A program made the translations under genes and the position numbers. From Shigella phage JK32: DNA of 64,000 nt. Shown in pieces: positions 1-64,000 of this stretch. Each line of letters begins with the position of its first letter. The first letter of the stretch is position 1. The DNA lies in sequence record MK962753.1; one strand, written 5' to 3'. Under the pieces are notes generated by a model. The model was not told where the DNA came from and ran no database searches. It worked only from the letters and a program-made list of their open reading frames with translations.

Positions 1-2109
1 TTAAAATTTAACATTCTTAACCAGTTTCATAAAGTCTTGTGCGCGTTTGTCGTTATGCAGAATACGATACCAGTTATCTACAATATCATACAGTAACGGG
101 CTATTCTCTTTAAACTTCGCACAAACTGCTTTAATTCGTTCGTTTGCTGCCGTGAATTTTTCATCACAGATCTTTTTAGTTTCTTCGTCCATAATCCAAC
201 GAGTATGAAGGAGTAACTTGGAAACCTCTTTATTATAATGACGACCGTACAGTCTGTCAACAAATTCTGGAATACAGCGTTCTAATTCATCGTCATGATA
301 CAACATAGTGATCACACCCAGATATTCGCCATACCCCAGATGATTGGTCTTAACCTTCTTAGCTAGACCAGCCAGCTTACCGCGAACAAATTCTAGCGCA
401 CATTCCAGTTGTTCGTCAACGAGATATTTTTGTGTCTCGTTTCGAGTAATAATATACTTTGTTACCCCGAAGTAGTCAAGCGCCGTGTGTAATGTATTTT
501 CACTATAGATCGATTTACGACTACGGCTTTCGAATGCATCACCTACGCGGAACATGTGCAAGCCTGACAACTCGCGAATCTCTGCCGCTTTCATGTGATG
601 GCTGGTTTTATGCCAACTGTCACCAATCTTTTCCATAATATACACGTTAGGCAGCTTAGGAGTCGCTTCACGTTGTGTACGCTCGGTCTTCTCCGGTTTA
701 ACTGCTTTAGCACGCAGATCATCGGCCTCGGACACTTTAATCACGGTCATTTCAGATTCATCATAATACTGTTTGATGTACTCGAAAGTCTCCATATGTT
801 TTTCGTTGTTCTGACGGAACACCAGTACCTTTTTATTGATGCCGTATTCCTGGACCATGCCGTTAAGAGTCAGTGCACGCAGTTTCGGTTTATCGGTATC
901 ATCAATAAGACACGTAATATCTTCTTTATGCATCCATACAAAATGCGTAATGTTGTATTGACTGCTAACGAAAGCAGGGCGCAATTTACTGATTGTGTGT
1001 CGAGTACGATACAGAGTATACACTTGACCTTCTACGTCATTAGGCGAATCTTTACCAGCATTAACAAACTTATTATAGATTTCTACCGGATCATCCCATT
1101 GTCCGATCTTACCCATCTTGCTAATAATATTGCGTTGAGTCGATGAATACTCGCTCATAAATTGCGCAAGTTTACGCTCTGTTTTAATGTTGGCGATCTT
1201 TTCTTTAACCTTTTCCAACATCATTTCATTGATTTCTGCAATGCGTTTTTCGATGTTCGCTTTAGTCTCAATTGACAAGTGAACTTCTTCACGCGATGGC
1301 ATCAGGTCCAGATCACCCAACTCAAAATTAATGTAAATGGTCTGGTGCTGGCGGTTTACAGCTTCTAACCATGTTCCGCGAACATATTCATACGGGATCG
1401 GATACTGGATCTTACCCATGATTGCATATACCACATACGCATCATTATCGCGACCATTACAAACATAATAATTATCAAAGATAGGGAAATAATTAATTTC
1501 GATTGCATTGATATTAGGTTTGTGTTCCCCAAAATGACGCAGTACAAATTGTGCTTCTCGATGCCATGTCTGAATATCTTTTTCTTTCACTGGAATAGTG
1601 ATTTTCAGACCATTGTCTTCATCAGTCGGTTCGTCGAAAATCTGCACCATTTTCGGCATAGAGTTTTGCACAAATGCCGTAAAGCCATAAGCGCGACCAT
1701 TGTAATAGTTTACGATTGTAAAGGTGTCGGTATAGCTATAAGCAGACTTCGCACCCAAACCAAAAGATCCAATATAATCATTAGTCTGGTCTTTTGTTGA
1801 TTCAAAGTAAACTGTAAACAGTTTTTCTAATTCCTTCTTAGATACAATGCCAGTGCCATAGTCACGCACAGAGAAATAAGGTTCAATTGCGGTAGGCAAA
1901 TGAATATCAAACGGACGATCTAAGGTTCCGGCTTCTTTGTGGGTGTCGGTAGCATTACATGAATACTCACGGACACAAGCACGTTCACAATATTGATAAG
2001 TGTTTTTAGAAAGCACCATAAAAGCCTTGCTACTTGCTTTCAGAGAAAAATCAACCGCACCGCTCAAGTCACTACCAAATACTTCTTCATTATCAATATG
2101 CATTTTCAT
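1..2109 (-). CDS. rIIA: rIIA protein (membrane-associated rII protein A)
   Basis: 702-aa ORF; N-terminal ATPase-like region and overall sequence resemble T4 rIIA; stop codon at window start. Confidence 0.85.
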   Translation of the reverse strand: MKMHIDNEEVFGSDLSGAVDFSLKASSKAFMVLSKNTYQYCERACVREYSCNATDTHKEAGTLDRPFDIHLPTAIEPYFSVRDYGTGIVSKKELEKLFTVYFESTKDQTNDYIGSFGLGAKSAYSYTDTFTIVNYYNGRAYGFTAFVQNSMPKMVQIFDEPTDEDNGLKITIPVKEKDIQTWHREAQFVLRHFGEHKPNINAIEINYFPIFDNYYVCNGRDNDAYVVYAIMGKIQYPIPYEYVRGTWLEAVNRQHQTIYINFELGDLDLMPSREEVHLSIETKANIEKRIAEINEMMLEKVKEKIANIKTERKLAQFMSEYSSTQRNIISKMGKIGQWDDPVEIYNKFVNAGKDSPNDVEGQVYTLYRTRHTISKLRPAFVSSQYNITHFVWMHKEDITCLIDDTDKPKLRALTLNGMVQEYGINKKVLVFRQNNEKHMETFEYIKQYYDESEMTVIKVSEADDLRAKAVKPEKTERTQREATPKLPNVYIMEKIGDSWHKTSHHMKAAEIRELSGLHMFRVGDAFESRSRKSIYSENTLHTALDYFGVTKYIITRNETQKYLVDEQLECALEFVRGKLAGLAKKVKTNHLGYGEYLGVITMLYHDDELERCIPEFVDRLYGRHYNKEVSKLLLHTRWIMDEETKKICDEKFTAANERIKAVCAKFKENSPLLYDIVDNWYRILHNDKRAQDFMKLVKNVKF

Positions 2110-2123
2110 AATATAATCCTCAC

Positions 2124-2381
2124 TTAATTAAAATCTTCTTTGTCCATCTCTGCGTAGATTACATCCCACGCCCATAAATCAATAAACGCATTATATGTCA
2201 CGGTGCAATCGTTGTCAATCACTTCTTTCGCATATTTCTTGATGTTTTCGTAGGAAACTTGCGGATTAATTTTGTTCTTCCGAAGGTGCGCATATTCATA
2301 CCTCAAACATTTCATAAACAGGTCCATCGATTTCTTTTCTCGATGACACTTGGCGATCATAAAATCAAAACTTCGACTCAT
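2124..2381 (-). CDS. hypothetical protein (rIIA.1 position)
   Basis: 85-aa ORF directly downstream of rIIA, same strand. Confidence 0.4.
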   Translation of the reverse strand: MSRSFDFMIAKCHREKKSMDLFMKCLRYEYAHLRKNKINPQVSYENIKKYAKEVIDNDCTVTYNAFIDLWAWDVIYAEMDKEDFN

Positions 2382-2392
2382 TTTTCTACTCC

Positions 2393-2587
2393 TTACACAT
2401 TTTCAATCACCCATTGCAGATGGGCTTCTTCGGCAACCAGTTCAGCGCGGCTTTTCTCTAAGCACTTGCTGTATTCTTTACGTTCCCACTCGGCAATTTC
2501 GTTTTTCAGGACTTCTTCATAGTAAGCAATTACGCCTTTCAGATCGGAAACTCTACGGCTTGCCAGTTCGATGTAATGGTTACGCAT
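2393..2587 (-). CDS. hypothetical protein
   Basis: 64-aa ORF, co-directional, preceded by AAGGAG-like site. Confidence 0.3.
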   Translation of the reverse strand: MRNHYIELASRRVSDLKGVIAYYEEVLKNEIAEWERKEYSKCLEKSRAELVAEEAHLQWVIENV

Positions 2588-2828
2588 TTTGATTCTCCTT
2601 TGTTACTAGATAACGAATTTGGTCTTGCATTGCGATCAGTTCCCAGCGTGCTACTTTCATCATGGAAACTGACTCTTTGAACATAATATTAGCTTTTTCC
2701 TTTTCCCCTGTCAAGTAGATTTCTGCAATTTTTTCACAAAATTTTTGAGTTTCTTCATTCTTAAACGGTTTCATATAAGTCAACCTTTTGTTTTCGATGG
2801 GGATATTATGATATATCCCCGATCTCAT
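2580..2828 (-). CDS. hypothetical protein
   Basis: 82-aa ORF, co-directional. Confidence 0.3.
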   Translation of the reverse strand: MRSGIYHNIPIENKRLTYMKPFKNEETQKFCEKIAEIYLTGEKEKANIMFKESVSMMKVARWELIAMQDQIRYLVTKENQNA

Positions 2829-2841
2829 GTCAACAACTTTT

Positions 2842-3141
2842 TTAATCTTTTTTCAGTGCATCCATTACTCGCTCTGCGATCAGTTCTCGTAAGCACTGAT
2901 AACCATGATATTTGATGGCAATATCACGCAGATCATTAACCAGTTCCCGTACTTCATGGTCTTTCAAATCGTCTCTGTATTTCGATTTAACCGTGTCTTT
3001 AGGTGGATTGCGGATAACCTGAAACCCTTGTTCTGCAATCACTGCGGCTTCTCGCTGGCGTTCGTGTTGTACTGTATTTTTGATTAGGTCTGCTTCCATG
3101 AACTTTGCCATACTCATCATCATGTTATTCTTTTTGCTCAT
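2842..3141 (-). CDS. hypothetical protein
   Basis: ORF 2842-3222 trimmed to internal Met (MSKKNN...) that is preceded by GAGGA; upstream lies a promoter cassette. Confidence 0.35.
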   Translation of the reverse strand: MSKKNNMMMSMAKFMEADLIKNTVQHERQREAAVIAEQGFQVIRNPPKDTVKSKYRDDLKDHEVRELVNDLRDIAIKYHGYQCLRELIAERVMDALKKD

Positions 3142-6712: not shown

Positions 6713-6955
6713 TTAAATATCCTCCGCGATATGCCGGAACAACTCCAGATCGTTTTTATCCAGAATGAAACCGCTACAATCAATAATCCCTTTACCGTAA
6801 TTATCGGTTAACAGTCGGTCCGTTGCCATGTATGCGCGTACTTTGTTGTTAAAATTCATTACATGTTGTGCATAGTCACAATGAATCTTTTGACGGTTCC
6901 ACGCGACAATTGATTGTAGATGTATTACATTAGCCATATCATTAATAACAACCAT
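6713..6955 (-). CDS. hypothetical protein (dexA.1 position)
   Basis: 80-aa ORF. Confidence 0.35.
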   Translation of the reverse strand: MVVINDMANVIHLQSIVAWNRQKIHCDYAQHVMNFNNKVRAYMATDRLLTDNYGKGIIDCSGFILDKNDLELFRHIAEDI

Positions 6956-16529: not shown

Positions 16530-18006
16530 TTAAATGTCAAACAGGTCTGTAAGAGATGCCACTTTTTCATATTGCAGCTTTGCAGCCGTGGTAATGTTCT
16601 CCAGTGGTTTGACGAAAGTCTTATTAAACAACAAAGGCCAGTCTAACCACTTTAACACCTCTGATTCAATTTCTGGAGGAATACGAGTACCGGACAACCA
16701 ACCAAAACAGATTTCTCCAAACGGATTTCGGTCTTTAAGCGGTACAATCATAACCTTCTCGCCTTCACGAATCGGATCTAGTCCGAATTTTCTGGCATTA
16801 CGATTATAACACAATACACTCTTAACCGCATACGGACAACCCTTAATCGGATACCCGTTTGAATCGCTGTATTTCTGTAGGTTGTTTGCAGATGATACCG
16901 CAGCAACCTCAAGATAATCAAGTTTTCTAAATTCTTGCTCAAAAATACCGTAGTATTCCTGCAATGACTCTTCACCTTCCTGCAACATACGGCGAATACA
17001 TTCTTTCAGTGATTTCTGACATGCTTTAGGGGTAGAGCTACGTTGCGTTTCCAAGCCCATGATTTTTAGCTTAGGTTCAGCAAAGCGTGTTCCTTCCATA
17101 TCCCAAACATTAAGAGCATAACGCTTTTTACCAGTCCAGAATCCACCGATACCCGCAGATTTCAACGGAGGACCAGCAATTGCCTCACGGTCCATAAACA
17201 TCAAGTGCTCATAGTTGTTCATGTACTCGCATAACTCGCGATATCCTTTGTCGATAATCGGTTCCATTCGATGTTTACCGAAATTATCAAGGAAGTCAAC
17301 AAGTTTTTCGGTATCGTCAAAACGGTCTTCCCCGCCAACCTTATCAACAACATTGTTAACCAGCACATAAACGGAGTCAGTATCACAATAACGAACATAT
17401 GCAAAATCAGTTGTTCCGCAAAGCTCGTTTAAGTATTCGTTAATCTTACGCTCAATCCACTGAATTGCAAGCTGACCGAACAGTGTGATCGCACTAGCGT
17501 TACGGAGATCATAAAAACGGAATTTAGGATTCCCCAACGCACCATAAAGGGAGTTGATCAAAACTTTTCGAGAAAGCTGGTTTGTATTGCACAAGATCGA
17601 CTCGTCTTTACATTCTTCCAGCAATTTCTCTAAGGCATCTTTGCTCAATTCAGAAAGCATCGATTTAAACGCTTCATCGAAGTCGTGACGCACTTCAACG
17701 CTATAGCTAATGGTTCCCCCATAAACATGATTTTCATCGTGTAGAATCGCTTTACAGAGTTCAGCATTGCGATCACATGCCAACATCATGTTTTTGTACT
17801 GCTTACGCTGGTCAAATACCTTTTTAATCTCAATCGGTACGATACCATGAATATCTTTTCGATACATCCATCCGTTAGGCGAGCAAGAATACTCATCACT
17901 CGGACGCGGGGCAGTTTTATTAATATACTCGTGCATCGGTGCAGCATCAAAAGATCCAGCGATTGTTTCCGGCGAAATGTTAGCCTGACGAATGATTGAT
18001 GGATAC
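16530..18006 (-). CDS. 43: DNA polymerase gp43, exon 2 (polymerase domain; KILINSLYGALGN and YCDTDSVYV motifs)
   Basis: Frame reads WYPSIIRQANISPETI... directly after an in-frame stop, upstream of the annotated Met at 17936; family-B motifs B and C present. Confidence 0.8.
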
Positions 18007-18146
18007 CATTATGTTCAGCGCGGTTCGCTACTCCCGCGCCCGTTCTCTTGCGAACTGCTACATGTCACCATGTAGATCAGACTATATCACATTCTCATAG
18101 AGAATCCTGCCATTTCGAATCGCTTGATTCTACTCTACTCGGTTCG

Positions 18147-18971
18147 TTACCCTTTCGATAGTCGTTGAACAACTGCATCTTTAAGCTCATTTTGATCAAA
18201 CGGTGTTCTCTTACAGTACCCGCTATAATTCTTAGCAAAAGGTTTCTTCTTACCAAAGATCTCTTTTCCTGAATTATATGCTTCAACAAGAAAATTCACC
18301 ATTTCATCAAATGTGAAACTTGCAAATTTAGCATAAGTTTCATTACGTTTTGACATTATTTTACTCATAACTTCCGGTCGTTTAGACGCTGAATTTTCTC
18401 GTTTCTCGCCAGTATTAAATGATACTAACTCACCGGAAACATATCTAGGATCGTCACAACTAACTCTAAACCGATTTCCTTCCTTATCCTTAACGATAAC
18501 AGTATTCTTTAGCTTTTCTGCCATAGAATCAAGACCTTTTCGTATAGTGTCCTCATCAGCCCCGAAATATTTCTTTCCGCTCATATCGGTTCTGGCTTTT
18601 CCGGTCTTGTTTTCGGATATTTTCCGTCTAACTTCCTCTCGCTTGGCTGGGTTATTGTCTCCAGCGAATGCATCTTTGGTTAACGCCTTCACTTTATCGT
18701 CATAAGACCCTCTAGAGATGAAAGCATATGCTCTCTTACACTCACCGTTATTGAATATTAAACACAACAACCGATGCGCCTCTACATGGTCTTCAAACTT
18801 TAGTCTTACGAGATTCCATTTATCTAACCGATGTTCAGGAAACATGGACTTCGGGCATATATGATGCACCTCGGAATATTCTTCACCCTGATACGGATTA
18901 GACACCAGTTTAATGTAGTCGTTTAATGCTTCCTCGTTATGTATTTCGTACTTTCTTAAAATGTCTTTCAT
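18147..18971 (-). CDS. intron-encoded HNH homing endonuclease
   Basis: EVHHICPKS...N...H HNH motif; start set at ATG (MKDILRKY) preceded by GGAGG, ORF track starts upstream at a non-ATG codon. Confidence 0.7.
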   Translation of the reverse strand: MKDILRKYEIHNEEALNDYIKLVSNPYQGEEYSEVHHICPKSMFPEHRLDKWNLVRLKFEDHVEAHRLLCLIFNNGECKRAYAFISRGSYDDKVKALTKDAFAGDNNPAKREEVRRKISENKTGKARTDMSGKKYFGADEDTIRKGLDSMAEKLKNTVIVKDKEGNRFRVSCDDPRYVSGELVSFNTGEKRENSASKRPEVMSKIMSKRNETYAKFASFTFDEMVNFLVEAYNSGKEIFGKKKPFAKNYSGYCKRTPFDQNELKDAVVQRLSKG

Positions 18972-18994
18972 CTCGCGCCTCCAATGTATATCAA

Positions 18995-19002
18995 TATTTA
19001 TA
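18995..19002 (-). promoter_or_regulatory. late promoter consensus TATAAATA upstream of intron ORF
   Basis: Exact TATAAATA on minus strand about 24 nt upstream of the endonuclease ATG. Confidence 0.5.
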
Positions 19003-19120
19003 TACATTATAAGACACGTTAGCTCAAAATGCAACTGCTGCTGATTGTCTCCTTAGAGATTTCCCAGCAATTAAGCAGGTTATTCGATCACTGTCACCAG
19101 TGAAAGCCCCATATCAGTTT

Positions 19121-49408: not shown

Positions 49409-49445
49409 TAAAAACGAAAAAAGCCACCCTTTCGGATGGCTTTTG
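49409..49445 (-). terminator. rho-independent terminator after the 712-aa gene
   Basis: GCCACCC/GGATGGC hairpin with T-run on minus strand. Confidence 0.45.
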
Positions 49446-57753: not shown

Positions 57754-57789
57754 CATAAAAAAATAAAGCCAACCCTTTCGGATTGGCTT
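57754..57789 (-). terminator. rho-independent terminator (stem AAGCCAA/TTGGCTT plus T-run)
   Basis: Hairpin and T-run on minus strand after GrcA-like gene. Confidence 0.45.
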
Positions 57790-63491: not shown

Positions 63492-63677
63492 TCAGAAATA
63501 TGCGATATAGTTTGCCAGTCCTACAGAGTCATCATTCGGCATTGCTTTTACTGCTAGTTCAAACCCTGCTTCAACTTTCTGTTTAGCGGATTCTTCGTTA
63601 TAACCCCAGATTACCAGAATAGCTACTACGTTTTCTTTGCTTACTGCTTTCAGTGCTTTAGTGATGCGACGTGCCAT
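63492..63677 (-). CDS. hypothetical protein
   Basis: 61-aa ORF. Confidence 0.35.
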   Translation of the reverse strand: MARRITKALKAVSKENVVAILVIWGYNEESAKQKVEAGFELAVKAMPNDDSVGLANYIAYF

Positions 63678-63723: not shown

Positions 63724-63752
63724 ATTATGCTATAGGCGTGATCTGGTGTCAA
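63724..63752 (-). promoter_or_regulatory. early sigma70-like promoter (minus TTGACA 63752-63747, CATAAT 63729-63724)
   Basis: Direct reading, 17-nt spacer. Confidence 0.5.
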
Positions 63753-63773
63753 CAACTTTTTTAAAAAAATTTA

Positions 63774-63805
63774 GGCAATAAAAAAAGCCACTCCGAAGAG
63801 TGGCT
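63774..63805 (-). terminator. strong rho-independent terminator (8-bp stem AGCCACTC/GAGTGGCT, UUCG loop, T7 run)
   Basis: Perfect GC-rich hairpin with tetraloop followed by TTTTTTT on minus strand. Confidence 0.7.
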
Positions 63806-63806
63806 T

Positions 63807-63955
63807 ATAGGGAAGGTAGCGAATCTTCCTTGTCTCCAACCTGCTAGCGGCCTAGCAAGTGAATGCTTTAGCGTACCGGGTCACCCCATACGCTGTAATA
63901 AATGCGGCTAGGTGACGTCCAAATCATTCTAACCGCGCTGTCTTTAGTTCACTAT
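63807..63955 (-). ncRNA. candidate small non-coding transcript between late promoter and terminator
   Basis: About 150 nt with no convincing ORF, bounded by TATAAATA and the strong terminator; internal hairpin TGCTAG/CTAGCA; no tRNA cloverleaf found. Confidence 0.25.
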
Positions 63956-63963
63956 TATTTATA
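63956..63963 (-). promoter_or_regulatory. late promoter consensus TATAAATA
   Basis: Exact TATAAATA on minus strand. Confidence 0.4.
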
Positions 63964-64000
63964 TCGCTTTCTCTCGCGACGTTTTTGATCTTCTTCCTTG

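Follow-up and report, generated by a model that had tools for sequence, protein, structure and literature searches.

A conserved non-coding interval between a late-promoter box and a terminator in RB49-like phages: a candidate small RNA

What does a T4-type phage keep in a piece of DNA that follows a late-promoter box, ends about 150 nucleotides (nt) later in an intrinsic terminator and seems to encode no protein? The question is raised by the end of a 64,000-nt stretch of Shigella phage JK32 (sequence record MK962753.1), which is called the window in the following, and in which an earlier note, made from the letters alone, had seen a late-promoter-to-terminator unit and a possible small regulatory or stable RNA. 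The last 300 bases of the window match 58 GenBank phages at 90-99% identity, all of them members of Krischvirus, the RB49-like T4-type coliphages (including RB49, phi1, JSE, GEC-3S, ECD7 and relatives). The interval, referred to here as the element, is structured and far more conserved than the adjacent coding DNA, and to this extent the proposal is upheld; the element has no Rfam family, and the discrete RNA is something that we infer. The explanation we prefer on the strength of the sequence comparisons, and to which we give about an even chance, is that the RB49-like phages have in this interval a non-coding RNA module specific to their genus, from which a discrete late RNA would be made. 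The interval is a good candidate for a new small RNA of phages, though one still to be proven.

Layout, fold and constraint of the interval

The local genes are all on the minus strand, and in RB49 and GEC-3S they follow the order 3, 1, 57A, 57B, several small open reading frames (ORFs) including dmd, RB49p118, a gap, RB49p117, ORFans and endolysin. The ORF-free interval that concerns us is the largest in the 64-kb window, when stretches without an ORF of 45 amino acids (aa) or more are compared; nearby genes are otherwise followed by the next signal within about 7 nt of the gene end. Its parts and immediate borders are as follows, with stem lengths in base pairs (bp).

63955..64000, minus strand: 3' end of the RB49p118 homologue, the start of which lies beyond the window (from RB49 and GEC-3S annotation and sequence)
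63956..63963 (read 63963-63956), minus strand: TATAAATA, T4-type (gp55) late-promoter box, exact match
63904..63936, minus strand: hairpin 1, GCGGUUAG-AA-UGAU-UUGGAC-GUCA-C-CUAGCCGC, 12 base pairs including 2 G.U
63870..63894, minus strand: hairpin 2, 7-bp lower stem AGCGUAU/GUACGCU and a hypervariable 2-3-bp apex (from the fold and the variants)
63840..63859, minus strand: hairpin 3, CUUGCUAG-GCCG-CUAGCAGG, 8 bp, invariant in all sequences
63830..63839, minus strand: linker UUGGAGACAA, single-stranded and invariant, GGAG followed by a purine-rich run
63811..63829, minus strand: hairpin 4, GGAAG-AUUCGCUAC-CUUCC, 5 bp (from the fold)
63780..63806, minus strand: intrinsic terminator AAGCCACUC-UUCG-GAGUGGCUU, T-run of seven, the first two of these being counted in the stem
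63724..63779, minus strand: AT-rich tract and sigma-70 early promoter (TTGACA 63752-63747, 17-nt spacer, CATAAT 63729-63724)

Most of the layout described in the earlier note was borne out. The TATAAATA at 63956-63963 on the minus strand is exact, and the terminator does follow about 150 nt behind it, its stem starting 149 nt past the box; an interval drawn as 63807-63963 ends just short of it. The hairpin given as TGCTAG-CGGC-CTAGCA is real (63859-63840), although its loop had been quoted from the plus strand and reads GCCG on the transcribed one. The terminator, which is also annotated in GEC-3S and other records, had been called the strongest in the window but is one of about six that are comparably strong, with a hairpin of -14.3 kcal/mol against values down to -16.9 kcal/mol for the others. 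The promoter-to-terminator unit itself stands, while three of its properties had been missed, namely the overlap of the box with the upstream ORF, the promoter-early stem-loop (PeSL) at its 3' boundary, and its position at the 3' end of an early operon.

The PeSL was described by Arbiol et al. (2010) as a composite terminator/early-promoter motif of RB49 and phi1 (PMC2839356). We took as a PeSL a stable GC-rich terminator stem-loop with an AT-rich tract and a strong sigma-70-like early promoter directly behind it, the whole located between genes in a hyperplastic region. Such an arrangement is present at 63806-63724, where GEC-3S annotates both terminator and promoter, and is a typical PeSL, but it covers the 3' boundary only, and the 150-nt body upstream is not part of one. 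PeSLs are repeated and follow an ORF within a few bases, whereas the element is single-copy, with no paralogue in the window or the genome. Thus the 3' boundary and the box, a standard T4-type late motif, are of known kinds, while the body belongs to no described family.

The sense RNA (63950-63779) folds into four hairpins followed by the terminator, with a minimum free energy of -65.4 kcal/mol (z = -5.3), and 0/200 shuffled sequences were as good. The antisense strand reaches -57.6 kcal/mol (z = -4.3) and is 7.8 kcal/mol less stable, which fits the presence of G.U pairs in the sense hairpins, as these become A.C mismatches on the other strand. In an alternative proposed by RNAalifold, a three-way junction is closed by pairing of the 5' end UAGUGAACU with the hairpin-4 loop, and the data favour neither model. 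The U tail has 5-7 nt and differs in length among strains. As a speculation from sequence, the GGAG and the purine-rich run of the linker make it a possible contact site for RegB (whose specificity was taken from PMC3014915) or for the ribosome/S1, and it could be a processing site.

That the interval holds no credible ORF, as had been stated, is in line with our results. The sole minus-strand ORF of 20 aa or more is a 22-aa TTG ORF running through the terminator, and 1-2-nt indels in hairpin 2, together with changes in the length of the T-run, shift every possible frame among strains. These frame-shifting indels rule out that the interval is coding. A small protein was considered and rejected, since both the 19-aa ATG ORF over hairpin 2 and the 22-aa TTG ORF over the terminator change in frame as well as in length between strains, and for the same reason the coding sequences annotated over the region in Delraymugoa and SSG23 were judged spurious. 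An RNA feature over the element is found in 0/58 records; RB49, GEC-3S, JSE and the other records inspected leave it unannotated.

The diversity (pi) in an alignment of 13 genomes was distributed over the region as follows.

p118 (upstream gene): pi 0.075, variable columns 71/221
p118, third codon positions: pi 0.143, variable columns 41/73
p119: pi 0.071, variable columns 46/183
element, 5' part (50 nt): pi 0.017, variable columns 4/50
hairpin 2 and the preceding linker: pi 0.118, variable columns 12/40
element, 63 nt from hairpin 2 to the terminator: pi 0.007, variable columns 2/63
terminator: pi 0.006, variable columns 1/26

The sequence of the element is under purifying selection. Hairpin 1 is invariant although p118 on one side of it evolves fast and hairpin 2 on the other is hypervariable. 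The most divergent relatives are a contig from IMG/VR and one of 170 kb from ENA; their neighbouring genes share 80-92% identity with RB49, and the element, hairpin 2 excepted, about 96-100%. Constraint on the loops and linkers equals that on the stems, which makes a sequence-specific contact with a protein or another RNA likelier than a purely structural role.

Support for the structure was assessed in 14 distinct aligned sequences, in which 99.6% of the pair cells overall form standard pairs. In hairpin 2 one pair is found as GC (11), GU (1) and AU (2), the neighbouring pair as AU (11) and GU (3), and the apex pair as GU (6), AU (4) and GC (1). One pair of hairpin 4 is AU in 13 sequences and GU in 1, the single A-U to G.U change of this hairpin being that of locus L067. 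All changes in stems keep the pairing, apart from a register shift at the indel-prone apex of hairpin 2, and nine hairpin-2 variants fold to one shape (9/9); pairing of hairpin 2 is thus retained. The stems of hairpin 1 show no variation in 14/14 sequences, and its loop has a single change, C to U, also in L067. The unpaired positions that change belong to the 5' leader, the loop of hairpin 1 and the linker that joins hairpins 2 and 3. As a whole, the aligned sequences suggest the structure without strongly supporting it.

The apex of hairpin 2 (63870-63894) is a hotspot for substitutions and 1-2-nt indels, with nine variants among the first nine distinct sequences and further ones added by later loci. 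Slippage at the G-run or relaxed constraint could account for this.

An explanation at the DNA level would see in the element an extended PeSL recombination arm, a protein-binding site or an origin-like sequence, kept uniform by frequent recombination. It draws on the fact that PeSLs are recombination sites (PMC2839356), that metagenomic contigs repeatedly end just past the region and that the conserved block reaches into the PeSL and the next gene. We nevertheless find it unlikely, as the high diversity of hairpin 2 amid a conserved stretch is difficult to reconcile with simple homogenisation, the sense strand gives the better pairing, with G.U pairs among it, and the single copy of the element differs from the repeated PeSLs.

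Relatives and the ancestral RNA slot

The element was found in Krischvirus only, in 58 isolates and metagenomic relatives. A blastn search of 50,697 phage records detected it in 58 Krischvirus and nowhere else, pattern scans of IMG/VR gave 2 contigs, both Krischvirus-like, and a metagenome scan returned 48 loci, 2 of which were real. There were 0 matches in 185,579 bacterial and archaeal genomes, and a covariance model, applied to the regions that follow 57B in T4, Hadassahvirus, Tulanevirus and Nanhuvirus, found nothing. In E. coli genomes, where the search detects long matches only, the terminator hairpin alone matches some chromosomes. An Hfq-type trans-acting small RNA would have a terminator with a long U tail and a conserved single-stranded seed for its target mRNAs; the element has its variable U tail of 5-7 nt and invariant linkers, and seed or target complementarity above chance was seen neither in the window nor in E. 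coli genomes, again with a search limited to long matches in the latter. A mimic of CRISPR repeats was also considered and rejected: local alignment to the E. coli I-E and I-F repeats was no better than that of shuffled sequences.

The position of the element is that of a cluster of transfer RNA (tRNA) genes in other phages. Such a cluster lies downstream of 3-1-57A-57B, in the same orientation, in T4 (Tequatrovirus), Hadassahvirus, Tulanevirus and Nanhuvirus, and the last members of the T4 cluster are RNA D and RNA C, then a terminator and an early promoter. In RB49 tRNA genes are absent (PMC1524935), so that the element is the sole RNA-gene candidate in the ancestral RNA slot. The earlier suggestion that this is a region for tRNAs and small stable RNAs therefore holds for synteny, with T4 and three other Straboviridae genera, and fails for sequence, as T4 66-76 kb, searched by blastn-short and by nhmmer with its filters disabled, had no match at rnaC or rnaD, where the covariance model found nothing either. 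That the interval could not be folded into a tRNA was likewise correct. A tRNA or transfer-messenger RNA was rejected, with 0 genes predicted by ARAGORN in the window and no match in the Rfam tRNA clan up to E = 10; Rfam gave 0 matches at the gathering threshold over the whole window, and the best sub-threshold score (22.5 bits against 41) was driven by the terminator hairpin.

It could be argued from the tRNA-cluster position and from the absence of tRNA genes in RB49 (PMC1524935) that the element is a decaying remnant of tRNA genes, of an RNA C/D-like gene or of a lost ORF. A relic should evolve faster than its neighbours, whereas the element is many times slower, and neither a tRNA signal nor similarity to the T4 tRNA/RNA C/D region was found; this very improbable explanation is already disfavoured by the conservation data.

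Comparison with T4 RNA C (species 1) and RNA D (species 2) is more instructive. Like the element, these are small (119-139 nt) non-coding RNAs of a T4-type phage with no function assigned, their slot is downstream of 3-1-57A-57B and directly before a terminator and an early promoter, and TATAAATA is found in the preceding ORF. In T4 the box lies inside trna.2 (72869-72876, minus; 6870-6877 in locus L003), about 340 nt upstream of the tRNA/RNA D/RNA C cluster. RNA C and RNA D have been classed as late RNAs, with their function still listed as unknown in 2022 (PMC9697503), and the box in trna.2 may relate to this classing. According to a review from 2010, T4 had yielded no functionally characterised riboswitch or trans-acting regulatory RNA, and what RNA C and RNA D do was not known (PMC3014915). 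Unlike the element, T4 RNA C is excised from a tRNA precursor and carries an acceptor end and a T-arm like those of a tRNA; the Krischvirus element, for its part, has no sequence similarity to RNA C or RNA D, no tRNA-like domain, no adjoining tRNAs, and a terminator of its own. The parallel is positional and architectural and is not homology.

The element also bears similarities to the lambdoid PR'-tR' units (lambda 6S RNA, StxS small RNA), in which a late promoter is followed by a strong terminator within about 200 nt and by no ORF, and the short PR'-tR' RNA of Stx phages is a regulatory small RNA (PMC7547250). These units belong to another class of phage and promoter, are owed to Q antitermination and have no sequence relation to the element. 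Judged by such analogies, T4 RNA C/D would be the nearest system by position and timing, and lambdoid PR'-tR' the nearest by architecture. In enterobacteria, small RNAs of the 'type I' layout, derived from the 3' untranslated region, share the terminator with the upstream mRNA and have an internal promoter in the 3' end of the ORF. The element resembles them in layout but differs in that the promoter is of the phage late type and not host sigma-70, and in that no seed or target was found.

The late-promoter box and the early operon

The TATAAATA box is not intergenic. Its letters make up the two final codons and the beginning of the stop codon (TAT AAA TAA) in the p118 homologue, which closes with ...CGA TAT AAA TAA and has its stop TAA at 63957-63955. 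When the box is placed at -13 to -6 relative to the start (PMC1524935), the predicted start is G63950 and the predicted RNA has about 170 nt. We took as the sequence of a T4-type late promoter TATAAATA at -13 to -6 on the transcribed strand, with A/T-rich DNA behind it and at the head of a transcription unit. The exact box, directly followed by ATAGTG, conforms to this, and activity as a promoter is predicted only.

Full TATAAATA boxes are not in excess in the window (3 against 5.6 expected). The core ATAAATA is depleted, with 5 occurrences against 24.3 +/- 4.6 expected on both strands, as is WATAAATA, with 3 against 13.3 +/- 3.8, and AATAAATA has zero occurrences on either strand. Among the 21 7-mers of the composition A5T2, ATAAATA and two overlapping neighbours are the three rarest. 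This suggests that late-promoter-like sequences are avoided in the early region and that stray late promoters are selected against there. The three full boxes all lie at gene boundaries and on the coding strand, which argues against a random occurrence at 63963-63956, and the late box at this site is very probably not accidental. The other two are located 20-35 nt upstream of start codons, one of an rI-like lysis-inhibition gene and one of an HNH homing-endonuclease gene; genes of the rI and HNH types are late-transcribed in T4. In the HNH gene (18147-19034, minus) the box is 20 nt upstream of the likely start. The gene is followed by a 95-nt ORF-free stretch (18000-18094, minus) with 49% GC, the fold of which is not significant (z = -1.7).

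The box at 63963-63956 is the sole full box without an ORF behind it, the next start codon being 278 nt off, past the terminator and with its own early promoter. The 38-nt stretch that holds the box is matched in 58/58 isolates and identical in 52, and the box is intact in every aligned sequence except that of locus L042, including 6 further metagenomic loci.

One may ask whether the box serves late expression of the downstream genes, with the 150 nt as a 5' leader or attenuator and a terminator that is read through conditionally. A structured leader with an intrinsic terminator is indeed the usual layout of an attenuator, and resembles the lambdoid PR'-tR' architecture (PMC7547250). The downstream gene, however, is equipped with a consensus early promoter and a Shine-Dalgarno sequence of its own, the UUCG loop and seven T make for a strong terminator, and a check by eye revealed no competitor sequence that could pair with the terminator 5' arm for antitermination. 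We know of no antitermination system of the PR'-tR' type for T4-type late transcription, and consider such a leader improbable.

Another possibility, which we regard as tenable though not favoured, is that the element is nothing more than the structured 3' untranslated tail with which the early dmd-p118 operon ends; it would aid termination or protect the mRNA 3' end, the box would be a tolerated by-product of the codons for Tyr, Lys and stop, and the phage would have no separate RNA here with its own function. The early promoters of the GEC-3S/RB49 map lie upstream of p125 and p124, and the map has no terminator annotated between them and the one at 63806-63780, so early transcripts must include the element. 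The location of the box within coding sequence points in the same direction. A terminator hairpin alone normally protects a 3' end, on the other hand, and comparable tails are absent from all other genes of the window. A passive structure would also not require loops and linkers to be this invariant, and the late core, counter-selected elsewhere in the window, is kept here despite synonymous alternatives (TAC, AAG, TAG/TGA).

Several findings weigh against the RNA module with a discrete late RNA, and the first two of them also favour a mere 3' tail. Nolan et al. 2006, whose hidden Markov model list has 17 predicted late promoters for RB49, do not include the site at 63963-63956. In L042 (MAVA01000028.1, 3330-3345) a 14-nt deletion removes GATATAAATAATAG, including the box, and the element downstream is intact; the same locus has two extra A in the A-run of the p118 homologue, and the C-terminus of the ORF is remodelled. 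Either the RNA can do without the late box, being supplied by early read-through, or the deletion is recent, and the loss of the box with retention of the element keeps the 3' tail explanation alive. Diversity is also low in p117 and its PeSL (pi 0.010), and that of the element may partly reflect a conserved or recently exchanged block and not selection on RNA. Covariation is thin, as changes on both sides are seen at one pair only, in two sequences, and 10/500 column shuffles reach the observed score, while hairpins 1 and 3 never vary and give no test of their pairing. The searches described above yielded no target, partner or homologue of the element, and a literature search found no Krischvirus RNA-seq, Northern or 5'-end data.

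If the element is an RNA module, as we prefer to think, its discrete RNA species would have about 170 nt, extending from about 63950 to the U-tract at 63786-63780, with four hairpins and then the terminator hairpin. Early, the element would form the 3' untranslated end of a polycistronic transcript from the promoters upstream of p125/p124, covering dmd to p118. Late, gp55-RNA polymerase would start at the TATAAATA box and give a short free transcript, and both the early and the late transcripts would end at the PeSL terminator. Since the element is also the 3' end of the early operon, the transcript need not depend on the late box. The element would act as RNA, in the sense orientation, with the apex of hairpin 2 as a tolerated spacer.

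A more specific version, which from sequence and position we can put forward only tentatively and hold to be rather doubtful, is that of a dedicated late, trans-acting structured RNA of no known family, located in the ancestral tRNA/stable-RNA slot near acb1 (57B) and dmd and acting on a host or phage protein or RNA. Such an RNA could be a decoy against host defence or a nuclease, or a functional counterpart of T4 RNA C/D; an anti-defence role, suggested by the neighbourhood of dmd and 57B, is conceivable as a speculation. The element is compact and strongly constrained, has clear boundaries and occurs in a phage group that lacks tRNA genes and grows on laboratory E. coli, which makes this RNA candidate an easy target for experiments. 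Should it prove to be no more than a 3' tail, what is gained in practice is a better annotation of the region.

Neighbouring genes and the PeSL cassette

The operon that ends in the element (1746-3137 in loci L001/L002) begins beside 57B and includes dmd. In one record 57B (acb1) is labelled an anti-CBASS protein, and the neighbourhood of the operon is thus one of anti-defence. The p118 homologue is a 72-aa predicted membrane ORFan with hydrophobic stretches (phrog_15168, no function assigned) and is found in Krischvirus only.

Three terminator stems of the window on the minus strand, at 57757-57780, 49417-49440 and 63780-63806, have the common frame AAGCCA...UGGCUU with GAAA or UUCG loops, and look, from their sequences, like a sub-family of PeSL stem-loops. 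Five short metagenomic contigs (L004, L068, L069, L070 and L071) stop 170-250 nt past the p118 stop, at the PeSL, which fits assemblies broken by repeated PeSL sequence.

The sigma-70 promoter at 63752-63724 is the promoter half of the PeSL and serves the next gene (63677-63492). This gene (63492-63677, minus; RB49p117) encodes 61 aa (phrog_7717, DUF7421) and is near-invariant in Krischvirus. Homologues with 72-80% identity are present in coliphages and Shigella phages of about 50 kb (among them vojen, tunus, ADB-2 and pSf-1), which we take to be T1-like siphoviruses, and the gene is therefore a PeSL-flanked ORFan common to different phage families.

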